A DNA stretch of 64,000 nt, from positions 32,001 to 96,000 of the forward strand of contig JAZSIR010000021.1 of the NCBI GenBank assembly GCA_045533905.1, given 5' to 3'. This DNA comes from Clostridia bacterium (GTDB lineage Bacteria; Bacillota; Clostridia; UMGS1883; UMGS1540). Below are positions 20,386 to 43,231 of the stretch, in pieces. The notes under the pieces are model-generated. The model made no database searches. It had not been told where the DNA came from and worked only from the letters and a program-made list of their open reading frames with translations. The position numbers and the translations under genes are program-made. Numbering within the stretch: position 1 is the stretch's first letter; each line of letters opens with the position of its first letter.

Positions 20386-20426
20386 TTATTCTGTTTTCTC
20401 CGCTTCCGAGAATATATTCTCAATAA
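20386..20426 (-). repeat. Truncated spoIVB 3' tail remnant (copy 5)
   Basis: 20396-20426 matches 33667-33697 at 27/31 nt; followed by hairpin 20365-20381. Confidence 0.7.
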
Positions 20427-21705
20427 TTCCCAAATCCCAACAAAGTCTTGATAAAACATATTTATCTCTTATATCCTTTGTGGCTTTAAAGGTTATTGGC
20501 AAAAGTTCTTCATCGAGTCCTATTTCCGCCATTGTTTTCGGAAGACTGGCCTTGTCAAAAAGATTTTCGAGTTCCGAAAACGCAGGCAGCTCCTCCTCGA
20601 TAATTTGCAAAATTGCATCCCACTTGGAAAGCAGTGTCCCAAGTCTTTTTCTGTGACTTTCCAAATTATATTTCTGTTCTTTCTCTTCGAGCGCAATCAT
20701 CGCTTCTGCACCTTTGCCGAGAAATTTTCTCAATGTTTCACTCCACGCCGCAAAATCAAACGCTTCCGCATACGCCAAAGCTTTTTGCCTTTCAGGCGTA
20801 CAGTTTTTTATTTTCTCATAAAGTTTAACGGCTATCAAAGTACCAACCGCACATTGAATGCCGTGAAATTCTACCGCCTCTCCGAATTCTACGCCACGCA
20901 TATCCCAAATATGAGAAAAATAATGCTCAACGCCGGAAGCAGGACGGGACATTCCCGCAAATTTCATAGCAGCTCCGCATATAACCAATCCCTCAAATAC
21001 TGCCTTGACCGCATTTTCATCCCGCTGCAAAAGCCCCTCGGCATTATCAACACACTTCTTTAAAGAACTTCTTACAAGCTCTGCTACCTTCTCGCAATAA
21101 TATTCGCCGTTTATAAGATGCGAGATGCGCCATTCACAAATGGAAACATACTTTGCAAGCATATCACCAAGTCCCGAAAGCATCATTTTTATGGGGGCAT
21201 TACACAAAATGTCCGTATCGCCAAAAATCACATCGGCACATTTACTGTCGAGAGAGGTTTTGAGGCCATCCATTGTCATAGAGGATGTTGCAGAGGCATA
21301 CCCGTCCATAGAGGGCGCTGTTGCCACTATGATATAGAGCCTTCCGGTAACGTTTGCAACAATTTTGCCAATATCGTTGATTACACCCGAGCCGACTGCC
21401 AAAATTAAATCACAATCTTTTTTGTAGTGCATAATGGCACTGCCGGTACTTGTTTCGTCCGGATGTAAAATTTCATCCCTGTAAATGTGGGAAAGTATCT
21501 TCGTTCCGGAAGAGGCAAGAATTTTACAAACCGCATCGCCTGCCGCGGTGAATGTGTTTTCATCCGCAATCAAAAACACTTTTTCCGCATGCAGTTTTTG
21601 TAACACCTGCGGCAATTGATGGATTACCCCTTTGCCGACTATCACTTCCGATTCGAATGTGTGTGCTTTTCCGCATGTACACTGTTTTGTATGTATCAAA
21701 TTCAT
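20386..21705 (-). CDS. sn-glycerol-1-phosphate dehydrogenase (AraM/EgsA family), C-terminus apparently derived from a spoIVB tail
   Basis: VGSGVINDIGK, TAPSMDGYAS, GDMLAKY, RPASGVEH and HGIQC motifs; ends IENIFSEAEKTE. Confidence 0.85.
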   Translation of the reverse strand: MNLIHTKQCTCGKAHTFESEVIVGKGVIHQLPQVLQKLHAEKVFLIADENTFTAAGDAVCKILASSGTKILSHIYRDEILHPDETSTGSAIMHYKKDCDLILAVGSGVINDIGKIVANVTGRLYIIVATAPSMDGYASATSSMTMDGLKTSLDSKCADVIFGDTDILCNAPIKMMLSGLGDMLAKYVSICEWRISHLINGEYYCEKVAELVRSSLKKCVDNAEGLLQRDENAVKAVFEGLVICGAAMKFAGMSRPASGVEHYFSHIWDMRGVEFGEAVEFHGIQCAVGTLIAVKLYEKIKNCTPERQKALAYAEAFDFAAWSETLRKFLGKGAEAMIALEEKEQKYNLESHRKRLGTLLSKWDAILQIIEEELPAFSELENLFDKASLPKTMAEIGLDEELLPITFKATKDIRDKYVLSRLCWDLGIIENIFSEAEKTE

Positions 21706-21816
21706 ATCATCACCAATTTAATTTTACCAAATATAGAGAGAATAATCAATACTTGAATATTATCTTGACAAAACAATCATCAATTGATTATAATAGTGAT
21801 TAAATAATAGAAACGG

Positions 21817-22524
21817 GTGATTATTTTGTCGATACATACTAGAGAAGAACTGTATATCAAACTCTTGGCGGAAAGAGAGCATACAGTTCGGGACCTGGCA
21901 AATAAACTTTTTGTGAGCGAACCTACGGTGCGGCGTGATATACTTGTTTTGGAAAAGAAGGATATTATCACACGCAAAAGAGGTAGGGTAAATCTCAAAA
22001 TAAATTCTGCTGATAAACGCATTCCGTTATTTATTCGCGATATGGAAAACAACCCATCTAAAAGGCAAATAGCGCTTAAGGCTTTATCTTACATTAAAGA
22101 TGGCGATACGATTATACTGGATGCCTCCACCACGGCCTACTGCCTGTTGCCGCATCTTGTAAATTTCAAAGAACTTTTCGTAATAACGAACGGCGCAAAA
22201 ACAGCTATTGACCTAGCGGCAATGGGGATCAAAACCATATGCACGGGCGGGGAGCTTACCGAAGAATCCTTTTCGTATGTCGGAACGGATGCCGAGAGCG
22301 TTTTAAGTCGCTATAATGCGGATGTAGCTTTTTTCTCCTGCAGAGGGATAACAGAGGATGGTTTTGTTACAGATAACTCTATTTTAGAAAATTCTATGCG
22401 AAAAATTATGATAAGGAATGCAAGAAAGAGTTACCTTCTTTGTGATAAAAGTAAGCTTGGAAAAACCTATCTGAATACACTTTGCCACAAAAATGAACTG
22501 GATGGCGTTATAACGGATACGTAA
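21817..22524 (+). CDS. DeoR/GlpR family transcriptional regulator
   Basis: LFVSEPTVRRD HTH, LDASTT, ITNG and LCDKSK motifs. Confidence 0.92.
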   Translation: MIILSIHTREELYIKLLAEREHTVRDLANKLFVSEPTVRRDILVLEKKDIITRKRGRVNLKINSADKRIPLFIRDMENNPSKRQIALKALSYIKDGDTIILDASTTAYCLLPHLVNFKELFVITNGAKTAIDLAAMGIKTICTGGELTEESFSYVGTDAESVLSRYNADVAFFSCRGITEDGFVTDNSILENSMRKIMIRNARKSYLLCDKSKLGKTYLNTLCHKNELDGVITDT

Positions 22525-22529
22525 TATAT

Positions 22530-22561
22530 AGGGCGTGCCTCACTATATTGAGGCACGCCCT
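22530..22561. terminator. Terminator after spoIVB tail copy 4 and convergent deoR-like gene
   Basis: AGGGCGTGCCTCA...TGAGGCACGCCCT followed by a T-run. Confidence 0.8.
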
Positions 22562-22562
22562 T

Positions 22563-22697
22563 TTACTTATTTGTTTTTCCCACTTCCGAGAGCATATTTT
22601 CAATAAAAATCCCATACCCGCGCGTGGGGTCATTGACGAAAACGTGTGTTACAGCTCCAATGAGTTTGCCATTCTGAACGATTGGGGAGCCGCTCAT
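22563..22697 (-). repeat. spoIVB 3' tail, copy 4
   Basis: Translates [44 protein letters not shown]. Confidence 0.95.
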
Positions 22698-22700
22698 GAC

Positions 22701-22721
22701 TGTTGTCAATGGGGGACAACA
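22701..22721. repeat. Cassette-end palindrome
   Basis: TGTTGTC-AATGGGG-GACAACA, 3 nt from the tail start. Confidence 0.92.
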
Positions 22722-22767
22722 AATTTTGAGGAATTTTCAAATCCAAGTTATGTTATATGTACTTTTA

Positions 22768-23976
22768 TCAATCAACTACACAACCATTGGCATCCACCCA
22801 TTTTTTACTGTCTACGTCAACACAAATCAACAACTTATTTAAATCAGTATCGAAAATCTGCTGTCCAAAAGACGGATAATAGCTGAGTCTTTCTGCAGTG
22901 CTGCAAACAGTTTTGTGGGTCATATTGATTGTGCGAAAGCCTTTACCTGAGCCATTTTCAAAAAGTTTAAAATTGGTTTCGTTTGTATGATTCCAGTCAG
23001 GCTGAAGTGTATATTCAATTCTTCCGCAAAAAGCTCCCGGGTGAATTTCACGCATAACATCCCCGAGTTTTCCTCCGGGGGTTTGGGTAGCCAAACGTTC
23101 GATGTTAAAGCTTATCATAGAAACTTCCTGACCGCCGATTAGAATATTACCATCACGGCCATGGTCACCACATTGATTAAACAATGGTAAGTTCACATTT
23201 CTTTCGTCGCAACAGTTAATCATGGTGATAGGATGATTGTATCCACAATTAAAATCGTAGTTACCAAAAGTATAGCCATAAACATTATGTGCTGCCGCAC
23301 AATTTAACATAACAACATGTTCTCCGCCCACCTGAATTCCTTCATAGAAACCACCTGATGTAACATTGTCATAGCGAACAATAAAGTTATTGCTACCATC
23401 GGTCATTGTAAGTCCGATGCAGCCTTCTTTTGCCATATCTGTTACACCCAAATATGTATTATCACGCTTTCCGCGAAGTCTGACATTTTTCATCTGAACG
23501 CGGTCGCAACGACGCAAATCTATGCAGCGAACAGCTTTCTGATTATGCGCCAATGTCATAGTAATATTTTCGAGATTCAGAACCGCTCCGCTATATAAAC
23601 CTCTGTTTTTCCATTCGGTACGAAAAACAGAATATTCACCTTCTTCTATTTTAGAAAGTGCTTCCTCAGAAACATCAATCTGTACGCCCTCACGATTTTG
23701 TTCGAAGCTGAACGATTGTCCGATAATTGCAATTTCCTTATATAAAGCAGGTATCCTAATAGCTGCCATGGGTCCGCCATCTTCAAAATCATAAAAATCA
23801 TCTACACAGTAAACACCGTTCAAAAGATAAACATTCTTTCCTTCTTCTGCGGCAGTCTTAATAGCTTTGTTTATCACAAGTTCATCATTTTTCCCTGAAC
23901 AAACAAAATCAATGCCATCCTTTTCATTAAATTTTGAATTCGATGCAGCAACAGTTATAAAAGGTGAAAAACTCAT
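22768..23976 (-). CDS. Hypothetical protein, probable pectin-lyase-like beta-helix
   Basis: DELVINKAI..VYLLNGVY N-terminal pattern and Asn/Gly-rich repeats; fold is an inference. Confidence 0.55.
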   Translation of the reverse strand: MSFSPFITVAASNSKFNEKDGIDFVCSGKNDELVINKAIKTAAEEGKNVYLLNGVYCVDDFYDFEDGGPMAAIRIPALYKEIAIIGQSFSFEQNREGVQIDVSEEALSKIEEGEYSVFRTEWKNRGLYSGAVLNLENITMTLAHNQKAVRCIDLRRCDRVQMKNVRLRGKRDNTYLGVTDMAKEGCIGLTMTDGSNNFIVRYDNVTSGGFYEGIQVGGEHVVMLNCAAAHNVYGYTFGNYDFNCGYNHPITMINCCDERNVNLPLFNQCGDHGRDGNILIGGQEVSMISFNIERLATQTPGGKLGDVMREIHPGAFCGRIEYTLQPDWNHTNETNFKLFENGSGKGFRTINMTHKTVCSTAERLSYYPSFGQQIFDTDLNKLLICVDVDSKKWVDANGCVVD

Positions 23977-24015
23977 AAAATCTACTCCTTTTTAATTTTT
24001 ATTCGGGTTAATACC

Positions 24016-24864
24016 TTAAATATTTAAAAATACTATGGATGCAAGTCCTGTTAAGAAACCTGCAAACTGTATTTTTGTCAGTTTTTCTTTATAAAATACT
24101 TTTGAAACAACATATGTAACAATAATTCCCCCTGCCGAAATCAGCGGAAACATAACGGATACAGCCATTGTTCCCGATAACACCATAACAAGCAAATTAA
24201 CAATACCATTCATAGCACCGGAAGCAACAGTAATAAACCGAGCATGATAAAAATTGCTTTTGAAATTATCTTTATTTGTTACCAAAGTGGCTACTGCAAA
24301 AATCAAAAACACAATTGCGAGAGAAATTATCATAAATTCATTTTTGTATTCACCGTCGAATTTAATTTGTTGCATTTTCTGAACGGTTGTACAAAGACCA
24401 TTGCCGGCAAACGAAAGAAAAACAAATAAAAGCCATTTTGGTGTAATAGGACACTTGTCATTATTCTTGTTCACAAGGAAAAGCGAAATCGCAAGCAATC
24501 CAAGACCAATTATAAAATATATGCTTATTGGTTCCCTGAGAAAAGCAATTCCGTAAAAGGTTGGAATCATAAGTGAATATGAAATCATAAGTGACGAAAG
24601 TGACAAAGAACCATTTGCAATAGCAAGCATACCAGATAGTGAAGCGGTTGAAAATGATAAGGCAAAGGCTATCGAATATGGAACAATCCCGGGATTCCAG
24701 CTAATATTCTTTGAAGTAACAAGAAAGAACATCATTGAAAAAAGCGCTGTAAGGGATAAAAAAAGATATGTACCATTTGTACCTGTCTTTTCTGTATAGA
24801 ATTTTTTAGCAATGCTCTGACCGGAAACGCCGGCTATTATAATTATCAAATATATAATGTTCAT
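24016..24864 (-). CDS. EamA/DMT family transporter
   Basis: About 10 hydrophobic segments in two repeats (FLREPI, FYKEKL). Confidence 0.8.
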   Translation of the reverse strand: MNIIYLIIIIAGVSGQSIAKKFYTEKTGTNGTYLFLSLTALFSMMFFLVTSKNISWNPGIVPYSIAFALSFSTASLSGMLAIANGSLSLSSLMISYSLMIPTFYGIAFLREPISIYFIIGLGLLAISLFLVNKNNDKCPITPKWLLFVFLSFAGNGLCTTVQKMQQIKFDGEYKNEFMIISLAIVFLIFAVATLVTNKDNFKSNFYHARFITVASGAMNGIVNLLVMVLSGTMAVSVMFPLISAGGIIVTYVVSKVFYKEKLTKIQFAGFLTGLASIVFLNI

Positions 24865-25021
24865 ACGTTATGGCTCTATTTTCATCTGATACTACAAACA
24901 ATCCCCATCAACTATATAAATTGTACCACTACATATTAATTTTTGTAAATAAATTATATTCTTTAAATATTGCAATATCTTCCCAACTATTATATAATAT
25001 TGTTTAGAGGAGGCGTTAAAA

Positions 25022-25828
25022 ATGATTATAAAATACAATACAGAAAAGTTGCGACGTATTATAACCGATATAACCACCTTGACTGGAATAAGCGTAGCCG
25101 TATTAGATACAGACTATAGCACCATAATAAGAGGACCACAGAGTAAAGAGTATTGCTCATTGCTGCAAACAATAGAAATTAAAAAAAAGCATTGCAAACA
25201 GTGTGATACAAGAATCTTAAACCGATGCCGTTCCTCTAAAAATTTGGAAAGTCACATATGCAGTGCGGGTCTTTATGATTCTGCAATGCCCATTATAAAA
25301 GACGATAACATCGTCGGATATGTCATAATGGGGCAGGTACGTTCTATGGACTCTCCTGCTCTGCCTAAATATTTACCTGATACAGATCCTCAAACACTTA
25401 AAAAGTTAAATAAAATCTATGAACAAACTCCATTTATTTCAAAAAATCAATTGGAAGCACTGTATGATCTTCTGCCTCATATTCTATTTGATAGTGCGAT
25501 TGAGTTTGTGTACGATCCTGTTGCAATTGATATACTTAAGTTTATTGATGCAAATTTGCAAGCGGATTTAAGTATAAAACAGCTATGTGAAAGATTTTAT
25601 ATATCAAAAAACCGATTATATGAAGTTTTTCGGAACAATCTAGGATGCACCGTTACAGGATATATTAACGAACAACGCATCAAGCAAGCAAAAGAATTAC
25701 TTAAACAATCAGACGATTCTATCTGTAATATTGCCGAAAAGGTAGGTATTTACAATTATACATATTTCTGTAAACTATTTAAAAAGCTCAGTGGAGTCAC
25801 ACCCACTGAATACAGAAAAAAGCCATAA
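25022..25828 (+). CDS. PocR-sensor AraC family regulator
   Basis: N-terminal YC..CKQCD..HICSAGL..GQV PocR pattern; C-terminal YFCKLFKKLSGVTPTEYR. Confidence 0.88.
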   Translation: MIIKYNTEKLRRIITDITTLTGISVAVLDTDYSTIIRGPQSKEYCSLLQTIEIKKKHCKQCDTRILNRCRSSKNLESHICSAGLYDSAMPIIKDDNIVGYVIMGQVRSMDSPALPKYLPDTDPQTLKKLNKIYEQTPFISKNQLEALYDLLPHILFDSAIEFVYDPVAIDILKFIDANLQADLSIKQLCERFYISKNRLYEVFRNNLGCTVTGYINEQRIKQAKELLKQSDDSICNIAEKVGIYNYTYFCKLFKKLSGVTPTEYRKKP

Positions 25829-25842
25829 AAGGTTTACGTAAA

Positions 25843-25873
25843 AATGCTCACTTATGAAATATAAGTGAGCATT
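25843..25873. terminator. Terminator after spoIVB tail copy 3
   Basis: AATGCTCACTTAT-gaaat-ATAAGTGAGCATT. Confidence 0.75.
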
Positions 25874-25877
25874 AATG

Positions 25878-26009
25878 TTATTTAATTTTCTCCGCTTCAG
25901 CCAGCATATTCTCTATAAATATCCCATATCCACGTGTCGGGTCATTTACAAAAACGTGTGTCACAGCTCCAATGAGTTTGCCATTCTGAACGATTGGGGA
26001 GCCGCTCAA
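25878..26009 (-). repeat. spoIVB 3' tail, copy 3
   Basis: Translates (TTG)[42 protein letters not shown]. Confidence 0.95.
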
Positions 26010-26012
26010 GAC

Positions 26013-26033
26013 TGTTGTCAATAGGGGACAACA
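26013..26033. repeat. Cassette-end palindrome
   Basis: TGTTGTC-AATAGGG-GACAACA. Confidence 0.92.
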
Positions 26034-26035
26034 AA

Positions 26036-28231
26036 TCAGATAAGTTTTTCTAACTCTGCCAGAATTCTATCGGCAATATTCTTCATCCCAATATCTCCGG
26101 GATGGTTTGCAACACCCTCGTGGCTAAATAATCCTATTGCTTTCATTTCATTAAGTTCACCCAGGTCTCCAAGTTCAATACAGGTCAAATTATTTTCTTT
26201 TGCATATTCTAAAATGATTTTATCACCGGGATGTTTCCAAAATCCTGTTGTTAATATAACTTTGGCCTTTAATGATTTGTTTAAATAGTCAAGCAGTTCT
26301 CCCAGTTCACGTTTGAATATTTCACAGTCAAATTCATTTTGCGGACAATTTTCAATAAAACGCATCACGATAATATCAGCATCAAAGCTGCGGGCTTCTT
26401 CAAAGAGATAATGTTTGGTTGAGCCATTTTTATATTCCATTTCCCATTCCGCAACCTGACAGATGCAAAACGCCGCATCGGCTGATTTTTCCGAAACCGC
26501 AGACATCACACGATGAACATAGTCGTTTTCGGGACAGGAAGCCGCCATTCCGCATTCGTTGTACCAGCCTATCTGCGGGCGGAAGCCGTGGAGTGTCATC
26601 GAATTTCCCACAAACATCACTCGTTTACCTTTGCCATTCAAATTAAAAAATCGAATATGCCCACTATTATTGAGTTGATGACCGGCACAAACCGTATTTT
26701 TCTGAAGTTGTTGGTATTCAGATGTTTTATAACAGATATTCTGCGTAAACTCTCCTGTAACGAATTGGTTCTCGTCAAAGTTTTTAAGAAGTTCTTGGTT
26801 CCAATACAAATTCTCAATCAATATATCTTTGGTTTGGTGGGTATCATCATAACCTTTGAAATATAGCGTTGGCTTTTGGCGACCAAAGAGGTGAATGTTA
26901 CTGAACAACATATTTCGATTGATGCCTCTGCGTGTGCCACCAGCAGAATACTCATGATGGAAACTGCTGACAATATGTATAAGATCAGGTGCATAATCTA
27001 AATTGGTGTTTTGATATGTTTCTGAATCTTTATTTTGAATAACACCTATTGGAATCACATCATCGTACTCTATATTTATATTTTTATACACCACATCATG
27101 CACATCGGCATAATCCACGTTGGAGCAGTCAAGTACATGACCGGTAACGTGTATGATGTTGCAGTTCTTAAAAACAATATTGCTTATTTCTTCCGCCCTT
27201 GTTTCTGCCCCGATTTCAAGACTTTTTCCCCAGTCGTTCCATATGGTGCAATTTTTTATAACTGTGTTCTTAAAAACATCGTAAGCTTTTCCTTTACGAT
27301 ACATTGCCTCTTTTACCGCTTTTTCAACATCATCTTCATGATAGCAATCAAAGCCTTTTACACAGATTGAATCATCAAAGGTTCGTAAAAAGCAATTATC
27401 TATAACAACATCTTCGCAATTGTGCATATCAATACCGTCTGAATTGTAACGCCAGCAACCAATAATTTTAACATTTGAAATATGCATATTTTTGCAACCG
27501 ATTGGTCTTATATTATAAACCAATGAATCGCGGATGGTGATGCCTTCAATTTTAATATTGTTACAATATTCAAGTTGAACTGTGTGCTCTCGTTTTGCAT
27601 TATTGACTGCCGAAATATTATTTTCTGCATTATACTCAAAAAGTATTTTCTCAGTGTTTTTACTGTTGTCAAGAATACCTCTGCCCAAAATTTTTATGTT
27701 TTCGGAATCTATTGATTTTACACAGGCATAAACCACCGCACCTTCGTCAATAAACAATGTCTGATTGCTTTTTAATACAATTTCTCCGGCATAGTGTTCA
27801 CCTTTGCCGAAATATATAACATTAGTATTGTTATAATCAATGTCATAGCAAGGTGTGGGATCAGAAAAAATATGAAGTGCATTATTTCTGCCATACGGCT
27901 CAACGGTAAAATAAGCAGGCTTTTCAAGAGTAAATGTGATTTTTCCGTCTTTGATTTCCGGTGTTATACCCAATGACAACGGGCGTATAATAACTTCCTC
28001 AAAGGGATTTTGAGGAATTATTTCAAAAGACACCGATTCATCTGAAGAAAGTGAAAGGAAATTAACAAGTTCGGTTTGAGCTTTACTACGCTGATGCCCC
28101 GGCCAGCGACGGTTAAAAGGGAATGCAGACACACGGGCAGTATCAAGTGTTACCGGTTGTCCGTTCACTTTAACCTTATAATTTTCTATGTGGTCTTTGG
28201 TTTGTGTTACAGGATAAATATTTATCGACAT
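26036..28231 (-). CDS. GH28-like beta-helix glycosidase fused to a C-terminal SGNH hydrolase domain
   Basis: NSDGID and FDDSICVKG (GH28-like); GNSMTLHG and NHPGDIGM (SGNH blocks I and V). Confidence 0.75.
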
Positions 28232-28383
28232 ATCTTTGACTCCTTGTATTTTAGAATTACTATGACAATTATAATATTAAAGCAAGTAGAAAAATAGGTA
28301 ATTTTTTAATATTAAAGGTATATATTTATTGACATTTTTGAGGATGCAATATATAATAGTCGTTATAAAAACCCCAAAGGAGT

Positions 28384-29286
28384 TTGATATGTGTGTATGT
28401 TTATAAAATCAAAATAAATTGTTTGCCAAAACTAATATGGGCTTGCGAAGTTACTGTTGAAAACTATGAATGGAGAAATCGCAATAGCAAAGATGTGTTG
28501 GAAATTTCGTATTCAAAATTTGACACAAAATCTGTTACCCTTAATAACAATAACTTTCTACTGAAAAACAACACTCTATCCTGCATAGTGGCTGATGAAA
28601 ACCGTACAGCCTCCTGCAAATCGGGAAAGCCAATAACAATTGTATCAGTTGCTGTTAGTTTAAGTGATTTTAAATACCAACCATGCGAACTTGTTGAAGC
28701 TGACTTGAGTGATGAAACAGTTCTTATATTGCCTTTTTATTTGGAAGAGTTGCCAATTAATTATGAACTTGAAATAATAAAGAAACTTCATGAAATCATT
28801 AAACTATCTTCCGCTGATTCGGAAAACAGAAAGATTGCTTTAGCATCTGCATTCTTTAACCTGATATGTGAGATTGATAAAATAACACGAAATAATATCT
28901 GCAGCCAAAACAACAGCGTCAATTATTATGTAAAAAAAATTGATTACATTATCGAATCCAGATATAATGAGAAAATCACTCTCCAGTCAGTTGCATCAGA
29001 GTTGAATATATCACCGGTTTACCTGTCAACCATTTATAAAAGCATAACCGGTATAAATTTTTCGGAGCAACTTCTTATTGTGCGGATGAAACACGCAGAA
29101 AATTTATTGTTTGATCAAAATATTTCCACAACAAAGGTTGCAGAACTTTGCGGATTTTGCGATGAAAATTATTTCAGGAAAAGATTCAAACGTTTTTTTG
29201 GTATGAATGTAAGCGAGTGCAGAAAAATCAAAAACGGATTAACGCTCTACCACGAAAAACCTCAAAGAAAAAATGACAGCTGCTAA
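28384..29286 (+). CDS. AraC family regulator
   Basis: C-terminal double HTH (ISPVYLSTIYK; CGFCDENYFRKRFK); start uncertain. Confidence 0.88.
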   Translation: MICVYVYKIKINCLPKLIWACEVTVENYEWRNRNSKDVLEISYSKFDTKSVTLNNNNFLLKNNTLSCIVADENRTASCKSGKPITIVSVAVSLSDFKYQPCELVEADLSDETVLILPFYLEELPINYELEIIKKLHEIIKLSSADSENRKIALASAFFNLICEIDKITRNNICSQNNSVNYYVKKIDYIIESRYNEKITLQSVASELNISPVYLSTIYKSITGINFSEQLLIVRMKHAENLLFDQNISTTKVAELCGFCDENYFRKRFKRFFGMNVSECRKIKNGLTLYHEKPQRKNDSC

Positions 29287-29305
29287 ATTTAGCGGCTGTC
29301 ATTTT
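29270..29305. terminator. Terminator after spoIVB tail copy 2, overlapping the AraC stop
   Basis: AAAATGACAGCtGCTAAA/TTTAGCgGCTGTCATTTT. Confidence 0.7.
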
Positions 29306-29308
29306 AAA

Positions 29309-29461
29309 TTAAAAATTTTCTGAATTCTTTTCTTCAATGCTTCGTGCAGCCGCTAACATATTTTCAATAAATATCCCATAACCTCTTGTTGGATCATTTA
29401 CAAATACGTGTGTCACAGCTCCCACAATTCGGCCATTTTGCAGGATGGGTGAACCAGACAC
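29309..29461 (-). repeat. spoIVB 3' tail, copy 2
   Basis: Translates (GTG)[49 protein letters not shown]. Confidence 0.95.
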
Positions 29462-29464
29462 GAG

Positions 29465-29485
29465 TGTTGTCAATATGGGACAACA
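29465..29485. repeat. Cassette-end palindrome
   Basis: TGTTGTC-AATATGG-GACAACA. Confidence 0.92.
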
Positions 29486-29499
29486 ATTTTTTATATTTT

Positions 29500-30309
29500 T
29501 TATAATTTACGCATTTTTCCGGGTGTTATTTTATAAACATTTTTAAAAGTGTTCGACATATGAGACTGTGAATAGAATCCGCATAGGTGTGAGATTTCGG
29601 AAATTGAAATATCCGTTGTGAGTAACATTTCTCGTACTCTTATCAATCTTTGTTTTGTAATATATTTATGTAGCGTTATCCCTTCGTTTTTTACAAAAAC
29701 TTCATTAAGATAATATGGATGATAGTGCAATTTATCTGAGATTTCCTTTATATTTACAGATATGTTATTTTCAACGATTTCTTTAATTTTTTCACATAGA
29801 GGTACTTTGTGTTGATTGTTTTCTTTGTTTCTCGACAACTTTAACAAAATTATATTCAAATACAAATTTTCTATATCTTGTTTTTTTGTGCTTTTTTTAC
29901 TTTCATTGTAAATGCTTTCTATATCGTTCCCTATTTCTTTTGCATTATTTACATATATTACATCAGAAAAAATATCTGGAATTTCAGCATTATACCGAAA
30001 TATAGTGTCATAATTAAACTCACCCGCTTTTTCCGGTACCATTACTCCTATATGCGAAAACTCTTGCGTAAAATCAAAGTTAACTGTATAAAATATTATG
30101 GTTTCATTTGAATGAATATGATAGGGAAACCCTGAAGGATAATAAATTAGAGTATTTTTACAAAGAGGGTATGTTTTATTGTTACATTCAAAAACACCAT
30201 TACCACTCAAAATATAAATCATACGGCAATCCCTCGCAATTACCATGTTATCTATAAAATATTTTGTTTTTGCAATATATCTTACAAAAGGCTCATAATA
30301 CAAAGGCAT
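29500..30309 (-). CDS. AraC family regulator with cupin sensor
   Basis: IYILSGNG cupin; [25 protein letters not shown]. Confidence 0.88.
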
Positions 30310-30409
30310 ACAACCAACTCATTTCTTTGTTTTTTGATAAAATAACTTCGTTATATGCATTGATTATAACATAATTAAATATTATAATCAAGAAAAATAA
30401 TAAAAGAAG

Positions 30410-32713
30410 GTGCTTTTTGTGAAAAATCCATTAATTACAATGTCAGCCGTTACAGGAAGGCCATCATTGAGTTTTGTCCAAAATTATATGAAATCTCTTA
30501 AGGAAAATGGTATTGAACAAGTTATGATTTACCCGAGGTCAGGATGTGAGCTTGAATATTTAAGCAACGACTGGTTTAAGACGGTAGAATACTTTTTAAA
30601 GTGTGCAAAGCGGTTGGATATGAACATATGGTTATATGATGATTTTAATTGGCCGTCAGGGGATGCGGGCGGAATGGTTTCAAAAAAATATATGTTGAAA
30701 TCAATTACAACAGTAGGGAAAAATATAGGTGAAATCAGTACATATTCAGAGCATAATGGTAAGATTTTCGGAATAAAATCTTTTCCCGATTTGCTGTCTT
30801 TTGATGCTGTTGATTACTTTATAAACATCACTCACGAGCAATATTATAGACATTTTAAAGAATATTTTGGAAACACAATAAAAGGTATTTTCACCGACGA
30901 GCCAAGCATTGGATATTGCTGCAACAATTCATCTGTGCCATATTATGAACAGCTCCCCGATGATTATAAAAGCTTGTGCGGAGATGACTTTTATGATGAT
31001 ATGGAGCTTGGCAGAGACAAGTTTTACGAAACCGTTATGCTTGCAGTGGCAAACAGGTTTAAAGCATGCTATGTTGATAAAATACGCAATTGGTGCGAGG
31101 AACACTCAATAGATATGTGTGGTCATATGATATATGATCACGAGCCTTGCGCTGCAACCCGAAATAACGGCAATTTATTGACAATGCTTTCGTCATTCTC
31201 TATTGCGGGAGTAGATGAAATTAACACCAATCTAAATGATTCCACTCTCCTTTCTCTTTTCGGTGCTGCCCAATATGCAAGAAAGGGTAATTATGCTATG
31301 GCAGAATTATTTGCATTAGGACCGTGTGATATGTCATATACATTAAGAAAAAGTATGATTTTTTATTCTGCCTGCTTCAAAATAAACCTTTACTTTCTGG
31401 CAGTTTCTCATATGGATATGAGAGGAAATACCGCAATACTTGATTATTTTAATGATTTCTCAATTTCTCAGCCGGATTTTTCAGGAATGAAGCTTTTGGC
31501 ACAAGAGGCACAGTTAGCGGCTGAATATGCAGATAAGGATTTTACACCCGATGTATATATTGAATATCCTTCAGAATTATGTGCCGGTAACTTGATGAAT
31601 AAAAATTTTAATACCAATATTTTTATAGCTCTTTTAAAACGACTTACCTACTATCAGATACAGTGGAAATTTATCGATAAAGGTGATGATACAAACAATA
31701 TTGAAGTAATCAGACTTACAAAGGATAATACCTTAAAATACGCACATATCACAACAACCGATATAGATGAAATATGCAAAGCCCTTGCACAAAAACCGCT
31801 TGTTATCAATATTAACGGTGAACTGTGTGAAAATATTTTTGTGCGAAAATTTGATGATGGCAGCTTTGTTGTAATTAATCTTGATGCCGCACCGTCAAAA
31901 TATATTATAAACCGCATTGATAAAGAGATTGACGGTTTTGGTGTAGTAACTGACAAGGATGTAATTCCTACCGAGTATAAAAAAGTAAAAGCTGAAATTC
32001 ATGATTTTAATGTAAATTACTGCAATAAAAATATTATTCGTTGTATGTATGTTAATTCACAAGATTCAGCAATCATTAAAAGCAACTCAAATCAAACAGT
32101 TGAATTTGTTTTGAGAAACGATGCAAAAGCATATATTGACAATGAAATCATTACTGCACAAAAATTTTGCACCGACATTCCGTTTGGAATGCAATGTCTT
32201 TACAAATCATCAGAATCCATAACACTTTGTAATGGCAGCTTTGTTGTAACATCAAGCAGCGATTATAAATATATGCCAAGTGTTCTTATAAAGGGCGACT
32301 TTGACGCAGAAAGTATAAGCGGAGATGTTTGTCAAATCAATCTTTCTCCACGAAAAAACACACTTTGTATCGGTGATTATATAAGCAGTTTTGGGAAAAT
32401 TGAACTTTCTCAAAAAGTGTTTGTTCCGAAGGAAGCAAAATTTTTAGAGTTAAAAGGAACAACGCTTTATACCTGTGTATCAATAAACGAAAAACCGGTA
32501 GGCGAGAGAATATGCTCTCCGTATATTTATAAAATTGACAGTAAATATTGCGATAGATTTGTGGATTTAAAAATAGTACAATATTCAAGCATTGCACCTA
32601 TTTTTGGTGATGTGGAATATTGGGACAAGCATTCCAAAAATGTGTCGTGGAAAGGCATTAAATCACCACAAAAAACCAATTTCGGAGTAGCAGGAGCAGA
32701 GTGGTTGGTATGA
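30410..32713 (+). CDS. GH106-like (alpha-L-rhamnosidase-like) glycoside hydrolase
   Basis: IYPRSG..YLSNDWF, WLYDDFNWPSG and GIFTDEP motifs. Confidence 0.65.
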   Translation: MLFVKNPLITMSAVTGRPSLSFVQNYMKSLKENGIEQVMIYPRSGCELEYLSNDWFKTVEYFLKCAKRLDMNIWLYDDFNWPSGDAGGMVSKKYMLKSITTVGKNIGEISTYSEHNGKIFGIKSFPDLLSFDAVDYFINITHEQYYRHFKEYFGNTIKGIFTDEPSIGYCCNNSSVPYYEQLPDDYKSLCGDDFYDDMELGRDKFYETVMLAVANRFKACYVDKIRNWCEEHSIDMCGHMIYDHEPCAATRNNGNLLTMLSSFSIAGVDEINTNLNDSTLLSLFGAAQYARKGNYAMAELFALGPCDMSYTLRKSMIFYSACFKINLYFLAVSHMDMRGNTAILDYFNDFSISQPDFSGMKLLAQEAQLAAEYADKDFTPDVYIEYPSELCAGNLMNKNFNTNIFIALLKRLTYYQIQWKFIDKGDDTNNIEVIRLTKDNTLKYAHITTTDIDEICKALAQKPLVININGELCENIFVRKFDDGSFVVINLDAAPSKYIINRIDKEIDGFGVVTDKDVIPTEYKKVKAEIHDFNVNYCNKNIIRCMYVNSQDSAIIKSNSNQTVEFVLRNDAKAYIDNEIITAQKFCTDIPFGMQCLYKSSESITLCNGSFVVTSSSDYKYMPSVLIKGDFDAESISGDVCQINLSPRKNTLCIGDYISSFGKIELSQKVFVPKEAKFLELKGTTLYTCVSINEKPVGERICSPYIYKIDSKYCDRFVDLKIVQYSSIAPIFGDVEYWDKHSKNVSWKGIKSPQKTNFGVAGAEWLV

Positions 32714-33216
32714 ATATTTTTGCATGGACAAGTGGTATTCTCGGAATAACTGCAAATGTGATAATCTATCAGCAAGAAAGCGGTAAACGAGTTTTGATAT
32801 ACAAGCTTATTTCTGATTTTATATGGGTTTTTCACTATTATACACTTAACGCATATTCGGGGATGGCGGTAGCAATGGTAGGTATTTTAAGAGAAATTGT
32901 TTTCTTAACCCAACAAAAAACGGAAATATCAAAAATCTGGCTGATAATTTTCATGGGCGTTGCGATGGTATGTGCATCCTTCACATGGAAAGGTGTAATA
33001 AGCTTTCTGCCCGCCACAGCTTCTGTTTTGTCGGTTATAAGCTTTTGGAAAGCAAATCCGGTATTTACAAGAATAATTGCCTATCCTATTTCTATTTGTA
33101 TGTTAACATACGATATTGTATATAAATCATATACAGGAATTACTAACGAAGTATTAACTTTTATTTCATCTACAATAGGTATAATACGAATGCGTAAAAA
33201 GGTAAATTTAATATAA
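32701..33216 (+). CDS. YgjV-like inner membrane protein
   Basis: Hydrophobic protein of ~170 aa with QQ..K, HY..L.AYSG and YD...SYTG patterns. Confidence 0.65.
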   Translation: MVGMNIFAWTSGILGITANVIIYQQESGKRVLIYKLISDFIWVFHYYTLNAYSGMAVAMVGILREIVFLTQQKTEISKIWLIIFMGVAMVCASFTWKGVISFLPATASVLSVISFWKANPVFTRIIAYPISICMLTYDIVYKSYTGITNEVLTFISSTIGIIRMRKKVNLI

Positions 33217-33229
33217 AGGGGTAATAACA

Positions 33230-33594
33230 ATGAGCGAATTAAGAATGGGTGTAATTAATTAGGAAAGAACTTTAATACGCTATTGATGCCGGGATTATGA
33301 AAAAAATGGCCTAACAGATTTTCCTGAAGATACCGGTATCAGGGTTATACAAAGACAGAGTGTATCCCCGGTCCAACAAATCAGGAGTTAAAAGATGGTG
33401 CTGATATGTTTTGCAGATGGATGGAAGAAAATATAAGCTATATGAAAAGGATGCATATCCTGACATTTGCATGGAATGAATTCGAAGAAGGAGCATGGCT
33501 GTGCCCCACATGTATTGATGACTCAAGTATAGACGATAGCCGTATTAAAGCATTTTAAAATATTGTAAAAATGTGGAAGTCAAAGCTTGGGTAA
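33230..33594 (+). pseudogene. Decayed glycoside hydrolase gene (GH99-like/WbsX-like)
   Basis: RBS and MSELRMGVIN*, fragment YAIDAGI, and ILTFAWNEFEEGAWLCPT with in-frame stops, frameshifts and apparent internal deletion. Confidence 0.6.
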
Positions 33595-33622
33595 GCTTTT
33601 ATATAAATATTAATATGTGATA

Positions 33623-33655
33623 AATATGCTCGCCTTTAATAAAGACGAGCATATT
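33623..33655. terminator. Terminator after spoIVB tail copy 1
   Basis: AATATGCTCG...CGAGCATATT. Confidence 0.7.
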
Positions 33656-33656
33656 A

Positions 33657-33788
33657 CTATTTAATCTTCTCAGCTTCGGAGAGCATATTCTCAATAAATA
33701 TCCCATACCCACGGGTTGGGTCATTTATAAAAACATGAGTTACTGCACCAACTAACTTGCCATTTTGCAGGATGGGTGAACCCGACAC
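33657..33788 (-). repeat. spoIVB 3' tail, copy 1
   Basis: Translates (GTG)[42 protein letters not shown]. Confidence 0.95.
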
Positions 33789-33791
33789 GAC

Positions 33792-33812
33792 TGTTGTCAA
33801 TAGGGGACAACA
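33792..33812. repeat. Cassette-end palindrome
   Basis: TGTTGTC-AATAGGG-GACAACA; contains the stop codon of the activase gene. Confidence 0.92.
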
Positions 33813-34678
33813 TTTTTCACACCGATGGCTTTGATTTTTTCTGCAACCAATGCAATTTCATCCTTTGTAGGTAATGGAACCATTGACAAAGGATAACCAA
33901 GCTCCATACACTCATATTTTCTTTCCGCATAGTTGTGATAAGGCAGTATCCGCAGTACTTTTACGGATTTTAAATCTTTAACAAAGGCTGCAATTTTCTC
34001 CGCTTCACCGTCATTCATTGTTGGTATGTATGGATATCTTATTTCTATAGGGATACGCAGAGAATCGATATATTTTATGTTTTCAAGTATCTGTTTATTT
34101 GATACTCCTGTGCATTTTGTGTGAATATCCTCATTGATAGCCTTTATATCAAAGAGAAATGTGTCGGTATAGGGGATGATTTTATCAAAAGCCACTCTGT
34201 TTACAAATCCGCTGGTGTCCACGGCAATATTTATATCGTGTTCTTTCAGAAGCTTTGCAATTTCTACGCAAAAGTCCGCCTGCATAAGCGGTTCACCACC
34301 GGAAAAGGTTACACCTCCGCCACTGCCTTTCATAAATATTTCGTCTTTAAGAACTTCTTTTGCTATTTCCTCTGCAGAAGATGTTTTACCTGAAATTTCG
34401 AATGCATTATTGGGACAGATATCTTCACATTTCCCGCATAACGTACATTTTTCTTTGATAAACATATGCTTTTCGTCTTTGATTACATTTGCCTCACATA
34501 TTTTGGTGCATCGCATACAATTACCGCAAGCAGTTTTGTCAAAAAGTATTTCTTTTTCAAAGGAAAATGATTCCGGATTGTGACACCATTTACATCGGAG
34601 GGGACACCCCTTGAAAAATACAGTTGTTCTTATGCCATCGCCGTCGTGAATTTCAAAAGGCTTTATAGCAAAAATCAT
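33797..34678 (-). CDS. Glycyl-radical enzyme activase (radical SAM) with ferredoxin-like insert
   Basis: [26 protein letters not shown], extra CxxCxxC clusters, [10 protein letters not shown]. Confidence 0.93.
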
Positions 34679-36876
34679 TAGCCCGACACCTCACATTGCT
34701 TTATAAACATATCTTGTTTTACTTTGCTGAGCTTTACAAAATATTCATTCCAGCCACATACCCTTACCTGAAGAGTTGAATATTTTTCAGGATATTTCTG
34801 AGCTTCAATCAAAGTCTCTCTTTTTACTATATTTCCCTGCATTGCAAATCCGCCATTATCGAGGAAGATTTTGATAAGAGAAATAAAGTCCTCAAGACCT
34901 TTTTCGCCTTCAACGGCAGAAGGATGTAATATAAAATCAAACGGTACTCCGTCTACAAAAGATGCTGAGTCAATTTTCAATACAGATTGCATATATGCGG
35001 TAATACCGCCCCTGTCCATTCCGTCGGATGCACACAGATTTTTGGAAATCGGTTTTTTTGCATTTCTTCCGTCAGATGTAGCAGATGTTTTTTCTCCGTG
35101 TTTTATACAATGATATACCGAATCAAGTCCAAGACGCACCTTGCCGCCTCTTTCGAGATTCTTGTTGCAATAACGATTGGCAAGATTTTCTAAAATGTCG
35201 GTCATTATCTTATCGGGAATGGTCATATTATTTCCATACTTTTCTTTGTCGTTGATAATTCTCTTTTGCAAATCTTCAAACCCTTTCCAGTCTGACAAAA
35301 GAGCTCTTCTCATATCGTCAAGTGAAATTTCCTTAAGGTCAAATACATATTTTTTTATTGCAACAAGAGAATCCACCGTAGTTGCAAGACCGTGATGCTT
35401 TAAAGATAAATTATTATACTTCAAAGGATATTCGTGCACATCCATACCTTTTTCAATACATTCTGAAAAACTACTCGAATATATAGGCGAAGGATTAATA
35501 AGTGTACTGTATTCTCCTTGCTTTTCAATGAAATCCAACGCAAAGTCGGTGCAGTAATTCAGTTGTTTTAAGTAGATGTCAAAAAACTCCTCAAAACTTT
35601 TAATATCTGTTTTACTTTCATATCCAACCTGAGAATCTGTCATAATATCTCTACCGCCATTTATAGCAAATTCAACACATTTTACCGTATTAAAACGAAG
35701 TGCCGAAATTTCACCTTCTTCCAATCCCATAATAATAGGCTCATAACAACCAAGTATAACATAGTTCTGTGAATCTTCTTTAGGTATGCCGATTTTTTCG
35801 TATGCATCAAATACCGCTTCGTCATTAATAAGACATATACTGCTGTGTCCGCCTCTTATCATTAAAGCGGCTTTTCTTATGATTTTTTCGTCTATGTTTT
35901 TATGACATCTTATGTGAATTTTGGGGTCATAAATGCCCATTTCATCATATACGTTTAAAATAAGATGACTGAGCTCATTAGTGTAATCATTTCCGTCCTT
36001 GTCAGAACCGCACATGGTAAATGGTTGTTCAGCAAATCTTTTTGCCGCTGTGAAATGAATGAAATAATACCTGAAGAGCTCTTTAATTTCTTCTTCTGTT
36101 TTTCCTGTTGCCTTGTCTTTTTCAAAATATGGAAAATACATTCTGTCAATGGGCCCGAGTGTTCTGGCTTTTTCGACTCCGATTTCCTCAAAATAAAGAT
36201 AGAGTATGGAAAATTGCATTACCTCATACAAATTTTCGGGTGGCTTTGTCATAAGATTTTTTATGCACCTTGAAAACTCCGGCACATTGAATTTAAGTGA
36301 ATATGTGTATATTCTGTCAAGAAGTCTTAAAATTGCATTATAGCATATTAATACAGAGTCAAGAAAAACAATTTGTTTATCCAGATAGTTTCCGCTTGCT
36401 ATAAGCTTTTCTTTTGAATTTTTAACGTTTTTAATAATTCCTGCAAAACCATTTTCCAATAGATATGACCAGTTGGGAACAGTATGAATAAAATCAACCA
36501 TCATCCAATCAAGACCAACATCTGCAAATTTTTTAAATTTTTCATATTCTTCAGGGAGCTTTTTTTTGCGAATTTTTTCTGTTTGCGAATAAAAAGCTTT
36601 ACAAAAAACAGTATCTGTAGCAAAATAAGAATAGTCAATTCCAAGGTTTAGTTTTACCGAAAATGGTGTATGCTCATTGATTTCCAGTTGCAGATTATCC
36701 AAAAGATACGAATATGCATTTGCGCACACAATTTCCCTGGGTAATTCTGTTTCGTAATTTTGAAATTCCTGTAGCTTTGATAATAAGATTTTGGGTGAAA
36801 GTCCTGTGGATTCATCCCAGATTGCTTGTTCAAATCCATTTTGTATGAAGTCTCTGTTTTCTTTGAATTTTTGCAT
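34678..36876 (-). CDS. Glycyl-radical enzyme (PFL-like family, not classical PflB)
   Basis: Single-Cys loop GCYEP; C-terminal LQVRVCGW glycyl loop; adjacent activase. Confidence 0.88.
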   Translation of the reverse strand: MQKFKENRDFIQNGFEQAIWDESTGLSPKILLSKLQEFQNYETELPREIVCANAYSYLLDNLQLEINEHTPFSVKLNLGIDYSYFATDTVFCKAFYSQTEKIRKKKLPEEYEKFKKFADVGLDWMMVDFIHTVPNWSYLLENGFAGIIKNVKNSKEKLIASGNYLDKQIVFLDSVLICYNAILRLLDRIYTYSLKFNVPEFSRCIKNLMTKPPENLYEVMQFSILYLYFEEIGVEKARTLGPIDRMYFPYFEKDKATGKTEEEIKELFRYYFIHFTAAKRFAEQPFTMCGSDKDGNDYTNELSHLILNVYDEMGIYDPKIHIRCHKNIDEKIIRKAALMIRGGHSSICLINDEAVFDAYEKIGIPKEDSQNYVILGCYEPIIMGLEEGEISALRFNTVKCVEFAINGGRDIMTDSQVGYESKTDIKSFEEFFDIYLKQLNYCTDFALDFIEKQGEYSTLINPSPIYSSSFSECIEKGMDVHEYPLKYNNLSLKHHGLATTVDSLVAIKKYVFDLKEISLDDMRRALLSDWKGFEDLQKRIINDKEKYGNNMTIPDKIMTDILENLANRYCNKNLERGGKVRLGLDSVYHCIKHGEKTSATSDGRNAKKPISKNLCASDGMDRGGITAYMQSVLKIDSASFVDGVPFDFILHPSAVEGEKGLEDFISLIKIFLDNGGFAMQGNIVKRETLIEAQKYPEKYSTLQVRVCGWNEYFVKLSKVKQDMFIKQCEVSG

Positions 36877-37010
36877 AATTTAATCACCTCTTGCAATGTA
36901 TTATACCTTTGCTTTAACGCGAAGTAAATGCATTATAGAGTCAAATAGATGTAAAAATCCGTCATTGACATTTATGGATATTTATTGTATAGTTTAATTG
37001 GTGATGATTT

Positions 37011-37781
37011 ATGAATGATATATGTATCAAAGAAATAGTCAATGTTTACCACAGGAATAAAATCATGTGGAGAAGAAATTCTTTTGCTCCACGTGCTTTC
37101 GATGCTGTTGTTTTATTTACACACGGAGAAATAGAATATAAATTTTCTGACAAAACCTTTGTTGCAAAAAAAGGTGATTTTCTATTGTTGCCGTGCGATA
37201 TTGCATATTCAGGAAAAATGCATACTGATAATGCTTCTTATTATGTAGTAGACTTTAGGTGTTTATGTGCTGACGAATTTAAAAATTATATAGCACCGGG
37301 TGTTTTTAAAACAGAAAATTTTGGTTTGTTTGTTTCTAAATTTGAAAATGCAGTGAAATCATGGGATGTTCACACACTCAATGCAAATCTCAAAATCAAA
37401 TCATTACTTTATTCTGTGCTTGCAGAATTCCAAAAACAGAAAGAAATGAATTTTAAAACAACAAGTATTTATGATATTATAGAATACATATCTGATCATA
37501 TTGGTGATTCAAATCTTAATGTAACAGAGTTATGCAGACTGTTTCATATATCGGATTCTCAACTCAGAAGAAATATTTTAAAAAATACCGGCTTATCTCC
37601 AAACGAATATATATTTACAATAAGAGTGAACAAAGCAAAAAACGAACTCTCGTACACCGATAAACCGATTCAAATGATTTCTTACGAATGCGGCTTTTCA
37701 TCACCATATTATTTCTCAAGATGTTTTTCCAAAAGTACAGGAATGTCCCCCTCAAAATACAGAACACTCACCCGTACATGA
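37011..37781 (+). CDS. AraC family regulator
   Basis: CGFSSPYYFSRCFSKSTGMSPSKYR. Confidence 0.9.
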   Translation: MNDICIKEIVNVYHRNKIMWRRNSFAPRAFDAVVLFTHGEIEYKFSDKTFVAKKGDFLLLPCDIAYSGKMHTDNASYYVVDFRCLCADEFKNYIAPGVFKTENFGLFVSKFENAVKSWDVHTLNANLKIKSLLYSVLAEFQKQKEMNFKTTSIYDIIEYISDHIGDSNLNVTELCRLFHISDSQLRRNILKNTGLSPNEYIFTIRVNKAKNELSYTDKPIQMISYECGFSSPYYFSRCFSKSTGMSPSKYRTLTRT

Positions 37782-37794
37782 GCAGGTGAGTGTT
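37763..37794. terminator. Terminator after spoIVB, overlapping the AraC stop
   Basis: AACACTCACC...GGTGAGTGTT. Confidence 0.7.
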
Positions 37795-37804
37795 TTCGAT
37801 TCTG

Positions 37805-42543: not shown

Positions 42544-43065
42544 GCGCAGACCGCAAAAAGGAAAACTAAATATTGACGAAGTATTTTTGTTTATCTGTCG
42601 TAACTTCGTACGGGTAGGGACTCTCAAATCTTGAGAGTCCCTTTGTTCTTGTTCCTTTTTGCTACACCAAAACTCCACCGCTTGCGGTACGCATGTACAG
42701 CTGCGGGTGGAGTTTTGGCGTTCTGCATCTTTTTTTCCGATTCCCCTCCGCAGCTTTGCAAAAGAAAAATAAGTAACCGAAGGGCACAGACCGCAAAAGG
42801 CAGGGGAAAATATATCTTAGTCCGTGTGCTGACAAAAGACAGTACAAATGGGCAGGGACTCTCAGGCGTGAGAGTCCCTTTGTTTTCATGCCTTTTTGCT
42901 ATGCGAAAACTTTGCCCATTATACGGGGCCCCCGAAAGGCGTAAGCGCCTTTTGGGGAAGAGGAGAAGCAAGGAAGCAGAGCTACGTTTTCGCCGATGCG
43001 GCGAAAACAGGGTGGGCGGACTTTGCTTTGACGAGTTCTGCATCTTTTTTCCGATCCCCCTCCGC
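42544..43065. repeat. Two imperfect tandem copies of a hairpin-rich intergenic repeat
   Basis: Shared blocks GCRCAGACCGCAAAA, AGGGACTCTCA..TGAGAGTCCCTTTGTT (42616, 42854) and GTTCTGCATCT-Tn-CCGATYCCCTCCGC. Confidence 0.75.
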
Positions 43066-43185
43066 TTCAGGAAAAACCCCACACTTTACCGGCTGCGCAC
43101 AAGTGCGCTTTTTATCGGCCTGCCAGGCTCGCATCTGTTCCTTTATTGAACCGCGCGACTGTCGCGTGGTTTTCGTTATACAACA

Positions 43186-43220
43186 AGAAAGAGCTCCGGG
43201 AAATTCCCGGAGCTCTTTTC
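43186..43220 (-). terminator. Terminator of the S-layer gene
   Basis: AAAGAGCTCCGGG-aaatt-CCCGGAGCTCTTT. Confidence 0.8.
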
Positions 43221-43231
43221 AAAAGCTATTC

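Follow-up and report, generated by a model that had tools for sequence, protein, structure and literature searches.

A predicted half-site of a large serine recombinase marks the ends of spoIVB-tailed gene cassettes in Clostridia

In a 64,000-nucleotide stretch of a Clostridia bacterium genome (assembly GCA_045533905.1, contig JAZSIR010000021.1, positions 32,001 to 96,000 of the forward strand; here called the window) an intact spoIVB gene is accompanied by four displaced copies of its own end, each standing next to a palindromic motif of two 7-nt arms around a 7-nt spacer. The question raised by this locus is which enzyme the motif serves and how the cassettes bounded by it came to be stacked behind a sporulation gene. 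The motif is predicted with high confidence to belong to an attachment half-site of a large serine recombinase (LSR), with the crossover at the TG of a spoIVB Met codon. The explanation as a whole, which joins such a half-site with delivery of the cassettes by a helper conjugative element since excised, is regarded as fairly probable.

An initial annotation had rightly taken the motif for a cis-acting recombination signal that marks the ends of cassettes and goes together with spoIVB tails. Exact copies are found at 22701, 26013, 29465 and 33792 with the spacers that it had given, the gap between motif and tail is constant at 3 nt, the junction codons read ATG, TTG, GTG and GTG, homology to spoIVB begins at the TG, and the intact gene (minus strand) is free of the motif. 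The arms, which had been called invariant, are so within the four copies of the window, while across genomes the inner arm reads GACATCA in about half of the sites. Chance accounts for 0.11 copies per shuffled window, and none of 100 shuffles reached four. In the source assembly (G000; 1.57 Mb in 23 contigs, 95.5% complete) a scan allowing up to one mismatch recovered the window's four copies only, and at two mismatches three extra matches appeared, none of them followed by a spoIVB tail; the possibility that the motif is a common operator or repeat, occurring genome-wide without tails, was therefore rejected. Read on the minus strand, every site has the same layout. After the end of the cargo come an A/T tract and then the palindrome, which a 3-nt gap separates from NTG; a duplicate of the final 43-50 spoIVB codons and a terminator-like hairpin follow. 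The spacing between the copies and the end of intact spoIVB amounts to 3312, 3452, 4327 and 4148 bp, and the G+C content of the cassette region is 31-41% vs about 50% in the surroundings.

The nature of the signal becomes apparent in nine Clostridia genomes where spoIVB is split at a common TG crossover with both halves in frame. In these loci the gene body ends at the Met codon and is followed by an arm named P', the tail stands at the far end after an arm named P, and autonomous elements with tandem LSR genes lie between spoIVB-5'-A-TG-P' and P-TG-tail, the target being disrupted with a 2-bp direct repeat, TG. P is a 25-bp element-side arm and P' is its inverted repeat about TG, as seen in the nine split loci and in one contig carrying the joined site (attP); P' mirrors P with a GAGTG-like sequence near the centre and GGGACAACA at +17 to +25. 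The functional dyad is thus centred on TG and not on the 7-nt spacer, which the initial annotation had taken for its axis. The nine best-conserved bases, TGTTGTCCC, lie 17-25 from TG, and the attP of LI integrase is described as having a 9-bp ZD motif at positions 16-24 (PMC3783163), a likeness in position only. Wherever a non-gene tail in the fetched loci has its 5' end intact (104 cases), it carries a P arm, about half of this set having been fetched through the motif itself. In a tail-anchored search with the upstream side left free, 22 of 301 Clostridia genomes had at least two matches (two of them being double gene bodies), and all 14 non-gene tails among the matches listed carried the P arm, 97 further matches being unlisted. 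In these terms the window holds one intact gene-side (B) tail site and four P-tail sites.

The position of the crossover within the protein is also telling. The Ser directly after it stands 15 residues before THV, just as S378 stands 15 residues before T393 in SpoIVB of B. subtilis (PMC12502668), so the split leaves the gene body without the catalytic Ser. In the nine split genomes the G+C content at third codon positions (GC3) of the tail tracks that of the host gene body, and for this reason the elements are considered to bring no tail. In a tenth genome (G561) the gene body stops at residue 358 and the tail, lying apart, adjoins an LSR-C orthologue, in G067 only the tail end is seen, and in G070 spoIVB is intact and a P arm is followed by non-tail DNA. 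At the last of these (L313/L069; G070:C83:528) an LSR-C end and P arm stand before non-spoIVB sequence, representing a secondary site or an assembly artefact.

The genes adjoining the arm name the enzyme class. At 12 of 99 sites with enough flank the arm comes after the last of several tandem genes of about 550 aa, LSR-C being adjacent. These tandem open reading frames (ORFs) encode Resolvase plus Recombinase proteins, with a zinc ribbon in seven of eight tested, and carry a Y-x-R-x-S motif, which we take to be the catalytic one. Three position-specific paralogues (A, B and C) can be told apart, with 44-63% identity to their orthologues and about 30% to one another. The full triplet is present in L035, L037, L076, L102 and L159; L188 has three ORFs with the catalytic motif, and in L086 and L307, where contig ends cut the locus, LSR B and C only are seen. 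In G000 itself no cognate LSR was found, the best matches to A, B and C reaching 32%, 28% and 29% vs 44-63% among orthologues, in an assembly of the completeness given above; its five Recombinase-domain loci are all away from the window contig. Other LSR genes of this genome, at C11:26700-30700 (a three-gene group), C8:36770-38290 and C7:2550-3330, are only remotely related to the spoIVB triplet. With up to four mismatches allowed, neither the window nor the rest of G000 gave a P'-like arm. Across the class, the gene-body junction pattern (attL) was met in two of 401 genomes (G093, split, and G198, unusual) and an LSR-C orthologue in one of 300, again G093 with its split spoIVB, which besides the split gene carries a second P-tail on an unplaced 4.1-kb contig.

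The arms also occur in other arrangements. Extra P- or P'-like arms, which may be miniature elements or accessory sites, lie near element ends or just past spoIVB tails (L086:3130-3227, L069:357-454, L104 at about 9804, L310:9411-9461, L309:175-263); in L086 and L069 they make a P'...P unit of about 100-120 bp, and G198 has a full attP-like dyad. A second P-arm type, its register differing by one base, goes with a longer tail type in G151:C14, G265:C47 and G093:C21 (L241, L245, L246, L244) and possibly belongs to a sister LSR clade acting at the same codon. A third, non-palindromic P allele is present in three genomes (L041 at about 7667, G550:C9, G581:C7).

The initial annotation had likened the palindrome to a tyrosine recombinase core or an HUH hairpin. 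The four window copies do fold as 7-bp hairpins, if weak ones (-4.9 to -5.8 kcal/mol, z -1.2 to -2.5), and five tyrosine-recombinase-family genes exist in G000, none of them on the window contig. This reading is nonetheless highly improbable and was rejected on covariation, position and gene context. The palindrome is perfect in just 44 of 92 standard-register sites and the covariation that was to be looked for is lacking, with zero compensatory changes (pair 3:19 is T:A in 46, T:T in 45 and T:G in one of the 92), whereas ATT of the spacer is conserved in 66/66, 66/66 and 65/66 sites. In L086 the fold of the site beside LSR genes is no more stable than those of shuffled sequences (z -0.08), the switch in homology falls at TG, 11 bp off the spacer, and the mirror arm P' sits at the opposite element end. 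The enzyme class had thus been misassigned, the recombinase genes adjoining the motif being LSRs, and the internal palindrome is probably a by-product of two sub-motifs inside one half-site.

The parent of these arms is a triplet-serine-integrase element with spoIVB as a new target. In G066 the element is like an integrative and conjugative element (ICE), its ends lying about 72 kb apart on one contig, and it encodes TrbL, a TraG-type P-loop ATPase, a coupling protein, RepA_N and ParA/ParB. A P-TG-P' junction, as expected of an excised circle, occurs on one metagenome contig of 1262 bp, where a parA-like ORF comes after it. By description, the streptococcal triplet-serine-integrase ICEs (Ambroset et al. 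2016, PMC4701971) are alike in that their element end bears three LSR genes, arranged in tandem in one orientation, with position-specific paralogues, and in having a disrupted target gene, conjugation-type genes and a direct repeat of 2-8 bp (2 bp, TG, in the spoIVB elements). They are unlike in their targets, which in that description are mutT, traG and hsdM with spoIVB unmentioned, and in that no tail-bearing recombinase-less arrays are described there.

The cassettes of the window carry regulators and catabolic enzymes, and no recombinase, transposase or transfer family was found by Pfam among its 49 scanned ORF entries. Tails differ mostly at synonymous positions (11-20 synonymous vs 1-5 non-synonymous codons of 36), as expected if each tail once was the end of a working gene. 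The body of intact spoIVB has a GC3 of 0.73 vs 0.30-0.33 in its current tail, and within the window tail GC3 climbs distally, from 0.30 to 0.48. Cassette 2 shares 90% identity over 3409 nt with a cassette of G473, a member of another family, from the terminator through the cargo-P junction; the tail that follows there differs (76%) and has decayed, and spoIVB of that genome is on a separate contig. At L297:6385-9354 of this genome, a 990-aa ORF opens with the decayed tail, fused to it in frame. Contigs from animal guts match the cargo of cassette 4 at about 99% (X4, 3760 nt with 37 differences; X7, 3211 nt with 37; X3, 2549 nt with 19), and those of X4, X7 and X2 match cargo and/or P and then diverge on the tail side; this comparison took in eight of the 24 runs listed. 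Judging from these matches, the travelling unit is cargo plus P, the tail that follows being excluded. Two further kinds of observation were set aside: the little or no cover of the spoIVB body in X3, X4, X7, X10, X13 and X15 despite cargo cover, as a hole proves nothing, and cassette-skipping joints, whose sides were about 30 letters or less and lay inside repeats.

At 70 of 76 sites the last ORF of the cargo is directed into P, and at 41 of the 76 its end falls within 26 nt of the arm; two of the ORFs counted are likely spurious, and about 11 of the sites are LSR-adjacent. Several ORFs of the cargo, glycyl-radical activases for the most part, have their stop codon inside P (...VVPY), namely at 33797-34678 of the window and in L019, L097, L113, L251, L254 and L042, which suggests microhomology joins. 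In L197 (G048:C32) two tandem gene-side (B) tail junctions and a partial tail are seen, so duplications can include the gene side too.

How the cassettes are delivered is a separate matter, for which a helper-ICE route seems somewhat the better supposition. The helper ICE would enter intact spoIVB (attP x attB), giving the order B-P'...ICE...P-tail1-cargo-P-tail2. Excision between attL and the distal P-tail would then release a circle of ICE plus cassette that, after conjugation, would integrate at spoIVB of a new host, and excision at the proximal P-tail would drop the ICE, so that spoIVB would be whole again, ending in a foreign tail, with the cargo, P and the former tail behind it. For this the canonical LSR pairings (attP x attB, attL x attR) would suffice and an array as observed would result, repeated rounds stacking newer cassettes at the spoIVB end and homologous exchange in the P+tail block of about 160 bp producing mosaic tails. 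Cis-mobilisation and co-transfer have been documented for tandems of cis-mobilisable elements (CIMEs) with ICEs, as described in PMC5704250.

Several points weigh against this explanation. A tandem of ICE and cassette on one contig was seen in no genome examined, both ends of an element share a contig in G066 only, the other elements being pieced together across contigs of metagenome-assembled genomes, and in G066 no relaxase was found by Pfam. The single 1262-bp attP contig is of low coverage and could be a tandem junction, not a circle. TG-anchored near-identical runs of at least 27 nt occur in 10 of 51 adjacent tail pairs vs 12 of 3759 cross-locus pairs; such runs are not given by a clean TG crossover, so homologous exchange must be added. 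GC3 polarity over 32 arrays was null (15 vs 15, with two ties). Some distal P arms and tails have decayed, and many array copies may be dead scars. Finally, the initial joining of cargo to P is accounted for by no LSR reaction. A deletion of an element's LSR end is suggested for this step by L104, in which about 100 bp of an L086-type element end are kept with no LSR.

Two other routes of transfer have been weighed against the helper ICE. P could be an LSR half-site by origin and a passive scar in the arrays, which would spread by RecA-type recombination, finding homology in the body of spoIVB, in its tails and in the P+tail block. Mosaic tails would be expected of such exchange, and adjacent pairs do show 83% mean identity (n=30) vs 73% across loci (n=1390); one upstream sequence is met with differing P alleles and tails (L021/L063, L044/L120), distal arms are decayed, the cognate LSR was not found in G000, and arrays (up to 20 of 301 genomes) are far commoner than split genes (one clear case in 401). 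We consider it unlikely all the same, as junctions cluster at the outer edge of P, with 74 P-bearing vs 4 P-less tail fragments in loci of at least 5 kb (a partly motif-ascertained count), and as the tail-anchored search returned P on 14 of 14 non-B tails among the matches listed. RecA acts poorly on sequences only 75-80% identical, as the tails are, which also counts against this route, and the first codon after TG is TCN in G000, G006 and G008 vs AGY in G001, G002, G004, G005 and G007.

The cassettes might instead travel alone, as P-tail circles joined to a B-tail by an LSR triplet acting in trans (attR x attB), in an integron-like and direction-neutral manner. Such a reaction fits the array exactly and requires no ICE tandem, the three LSR paralogues could in principle serve separate half-sites, and CcrAB is stated to recombine non-canonical pairs (PMC5595907). 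Ordinary serine integrases, however, are described as not recombining other pairings (PMC3783163), the cassettes yielded neither an origin of transfer nor a transfer gene, and the metagenome contigs examined showed no cassette circle; this route is judged quite improbable.

With the helper-ICE explanation retained, its closest relatives among known systems can be compared. CIMEs, as presented in PMC5704250, are likewise recombinase-less cargo units stacked at one attachment site; they can move with an adjoining ICE, as the window cassettes would, and the window cassettes share their lack of integration and transfer genes. CIMEs by definition keep attL and attR, whereas the spoIVB cassettes have P and no P', their left boundary being a B-tail or P-tail site; they also carry a coding tail of about 130 bp with a terminator-like hairpin and keep the gene whole, while the parent element splits it. 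Composites of the staphylococcal cassette chromosome (SCC) at rlmH (PMC13739063) and the ssrA islands of Dehalococcoides (PMC3146451) are described as LSR-type, tandem cassettes divided by attachment sites, in which a conserved motif immediately precedes the direct repeat, some units lack a recombinase and older ones are displaced outward. They differ, by the same accounts, in using Ccr or Dsi enzymes with no triplet and short repeats (20 bp for ssrA) at the 3' end of the gene, while the spoIVB crossover lies 43 codons inside the active-site region. The intervening elements of sporulation genes (skin, SPbeta, gin, yin) resemble the parent in that a serine-recombinase element splits a sporulation gene and excision would be needed to restore it (PMC5595907, PMC6957869, PMC10747680). 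Known ones are reported almost all in mother-cell genes (PMC6957869), whereas spoIVB is under sigmaF/sigmaG (forespore) control in B. subtilis and C. difficile (PMC3789822), two model species from which the present hosts may differ. In gin, according to these descriptions, three LSRs are present with girC apart from girAB and only GirC and GirX needed, unlike the tandem spoIVB triplet.

A delivery coupled to sporulation can be imagined, in which a triplet-LSR ICE splits a forespore gene at its catalytic codon, must exit the spore chromosome if the spore is to mature, and drops recombinase-less, tail-bearing cassettes, building an ordered integron-like catabolic array across Clostridia families; this hit-and-run scheme is tentative and rather doubtful. 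No paper naming spoIVB as a serine-recombinase target was found in a search that left subscription journals mostly uncovered, and the gene may stand in supplementary tables of LSR targets. The assignment names a probable enzyme class and an exact crossover for a common gene-acquisition hotspot of uncultured gut Clostridia. No study was found in the literature on how serine-integrase triplets divide work, and the loci give a defined attB/attP/attL/attR set for examining it. Through them the list of sporulation genes interrupted by mobile DNA would come to include one of the forespore, a situation that predicts germ-line loss of the element. A conserved docking site that restores its gene could also serve gene insertion into Clostridia.

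The motif is spread beyond the source genome. Within the order 12 of 58 genomes have it, against no control matches, as do 9 of 18 genomes of another family; a scan of GTDB covering 27 of 64 parts gave 119 loci and a viral scan 16. A spoIVB tail after the motif was flagged by script at 55 of 138 matches, the tail-followed matches with an informative taxon label being Clostridia and the matches in other phyla lacking a tail. One of the 16 viral-contig loci found with the P pattern (L159) has a tail and the LSR triplet; the P' pattern gave one match and a protein scan for LSR-C none in viral contigs. A family-wide pattern proved too loose, its 66 positives among 351 genomes being mostly chance or coding matches. 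The features of the window are collected in Table 1.

Table 1. Coordinates of the spoIVB-associated features in the window
Feature	Position	Strand	Remarks
P arm 1	22697..22721	-	25-bp element-side half-site; contains palindrome 22701-22721
P arm 2	26009..26033	-	cargo-P junction identical in kind in G473
P arm 3	29461..29485	-	motif copy
P arm 4	33788..33812	-	25/25 bp identical to the arm beside the G093 LSR genes
Displaced spoIVB tail T1	22563..22696	-	begins at TG crossover; GC3 0.48, top of five tails
Displaced spoIVB tail T2	25878..26008	-	initial 46 nt identical to T1
Displaced spoIVB tail T3	29309..29460	-	spoIVB tail homology
Displaced spoIVB tail T4	33657..33787	-	spoIVB tail homology
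Intact spoIVB	37805..39004	-	Peptidase_S55 and PDZ
Inferred attB crossover TG in intact spoIVB	37935-37934	-	
Cassette 4, 4148 bp	33788..37935	-	tail, terminator-like hairpin, AraC, glycyl-radical (pyruvate formate-lyase-like) enzyme, radical-SAM activase
Cassette 3, 4327 bp	29461..33787	-	YgjV-like membrane protein, 767-aa ORF without Pfam match, AraC
Cassette 2, 3452 bp	26009..29460	-	AraC, GH28-like hydrolase
Cassette 1, 3312 bp	22697..26008	-	PocR-AraC, EamA, 402-aa ORF without Pfam match
Truncated distal module	20386..22696	-	DeoR, iron-containing alcohol dehydrogenase; no P arm

In cassette 4 the ORF of the radical-SAM activase reads into the P arm and has its stop codon there. At the other end of the array, the ORF of the iron-containing alcohol dehydrogenase (20386) ends in a tail-like sequence at about 20386-20430, an extension missing from eight homologues. 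Homologues of the 402-aa ORF, DeoR and this dehydrogenase stand in the same cassette order in L298 (G151:C14, of another family) at 54-65% identity to window positions 20386-26008, and the dehydrogenase gene of L298 runs on into a longer catabolic cluster. Three ORFs of the window have no Pfam match: 42896-46069 (+, 1058 aa), 30410-32713 (+, 767 aa) and 22768-23976 (-, 402 aa).

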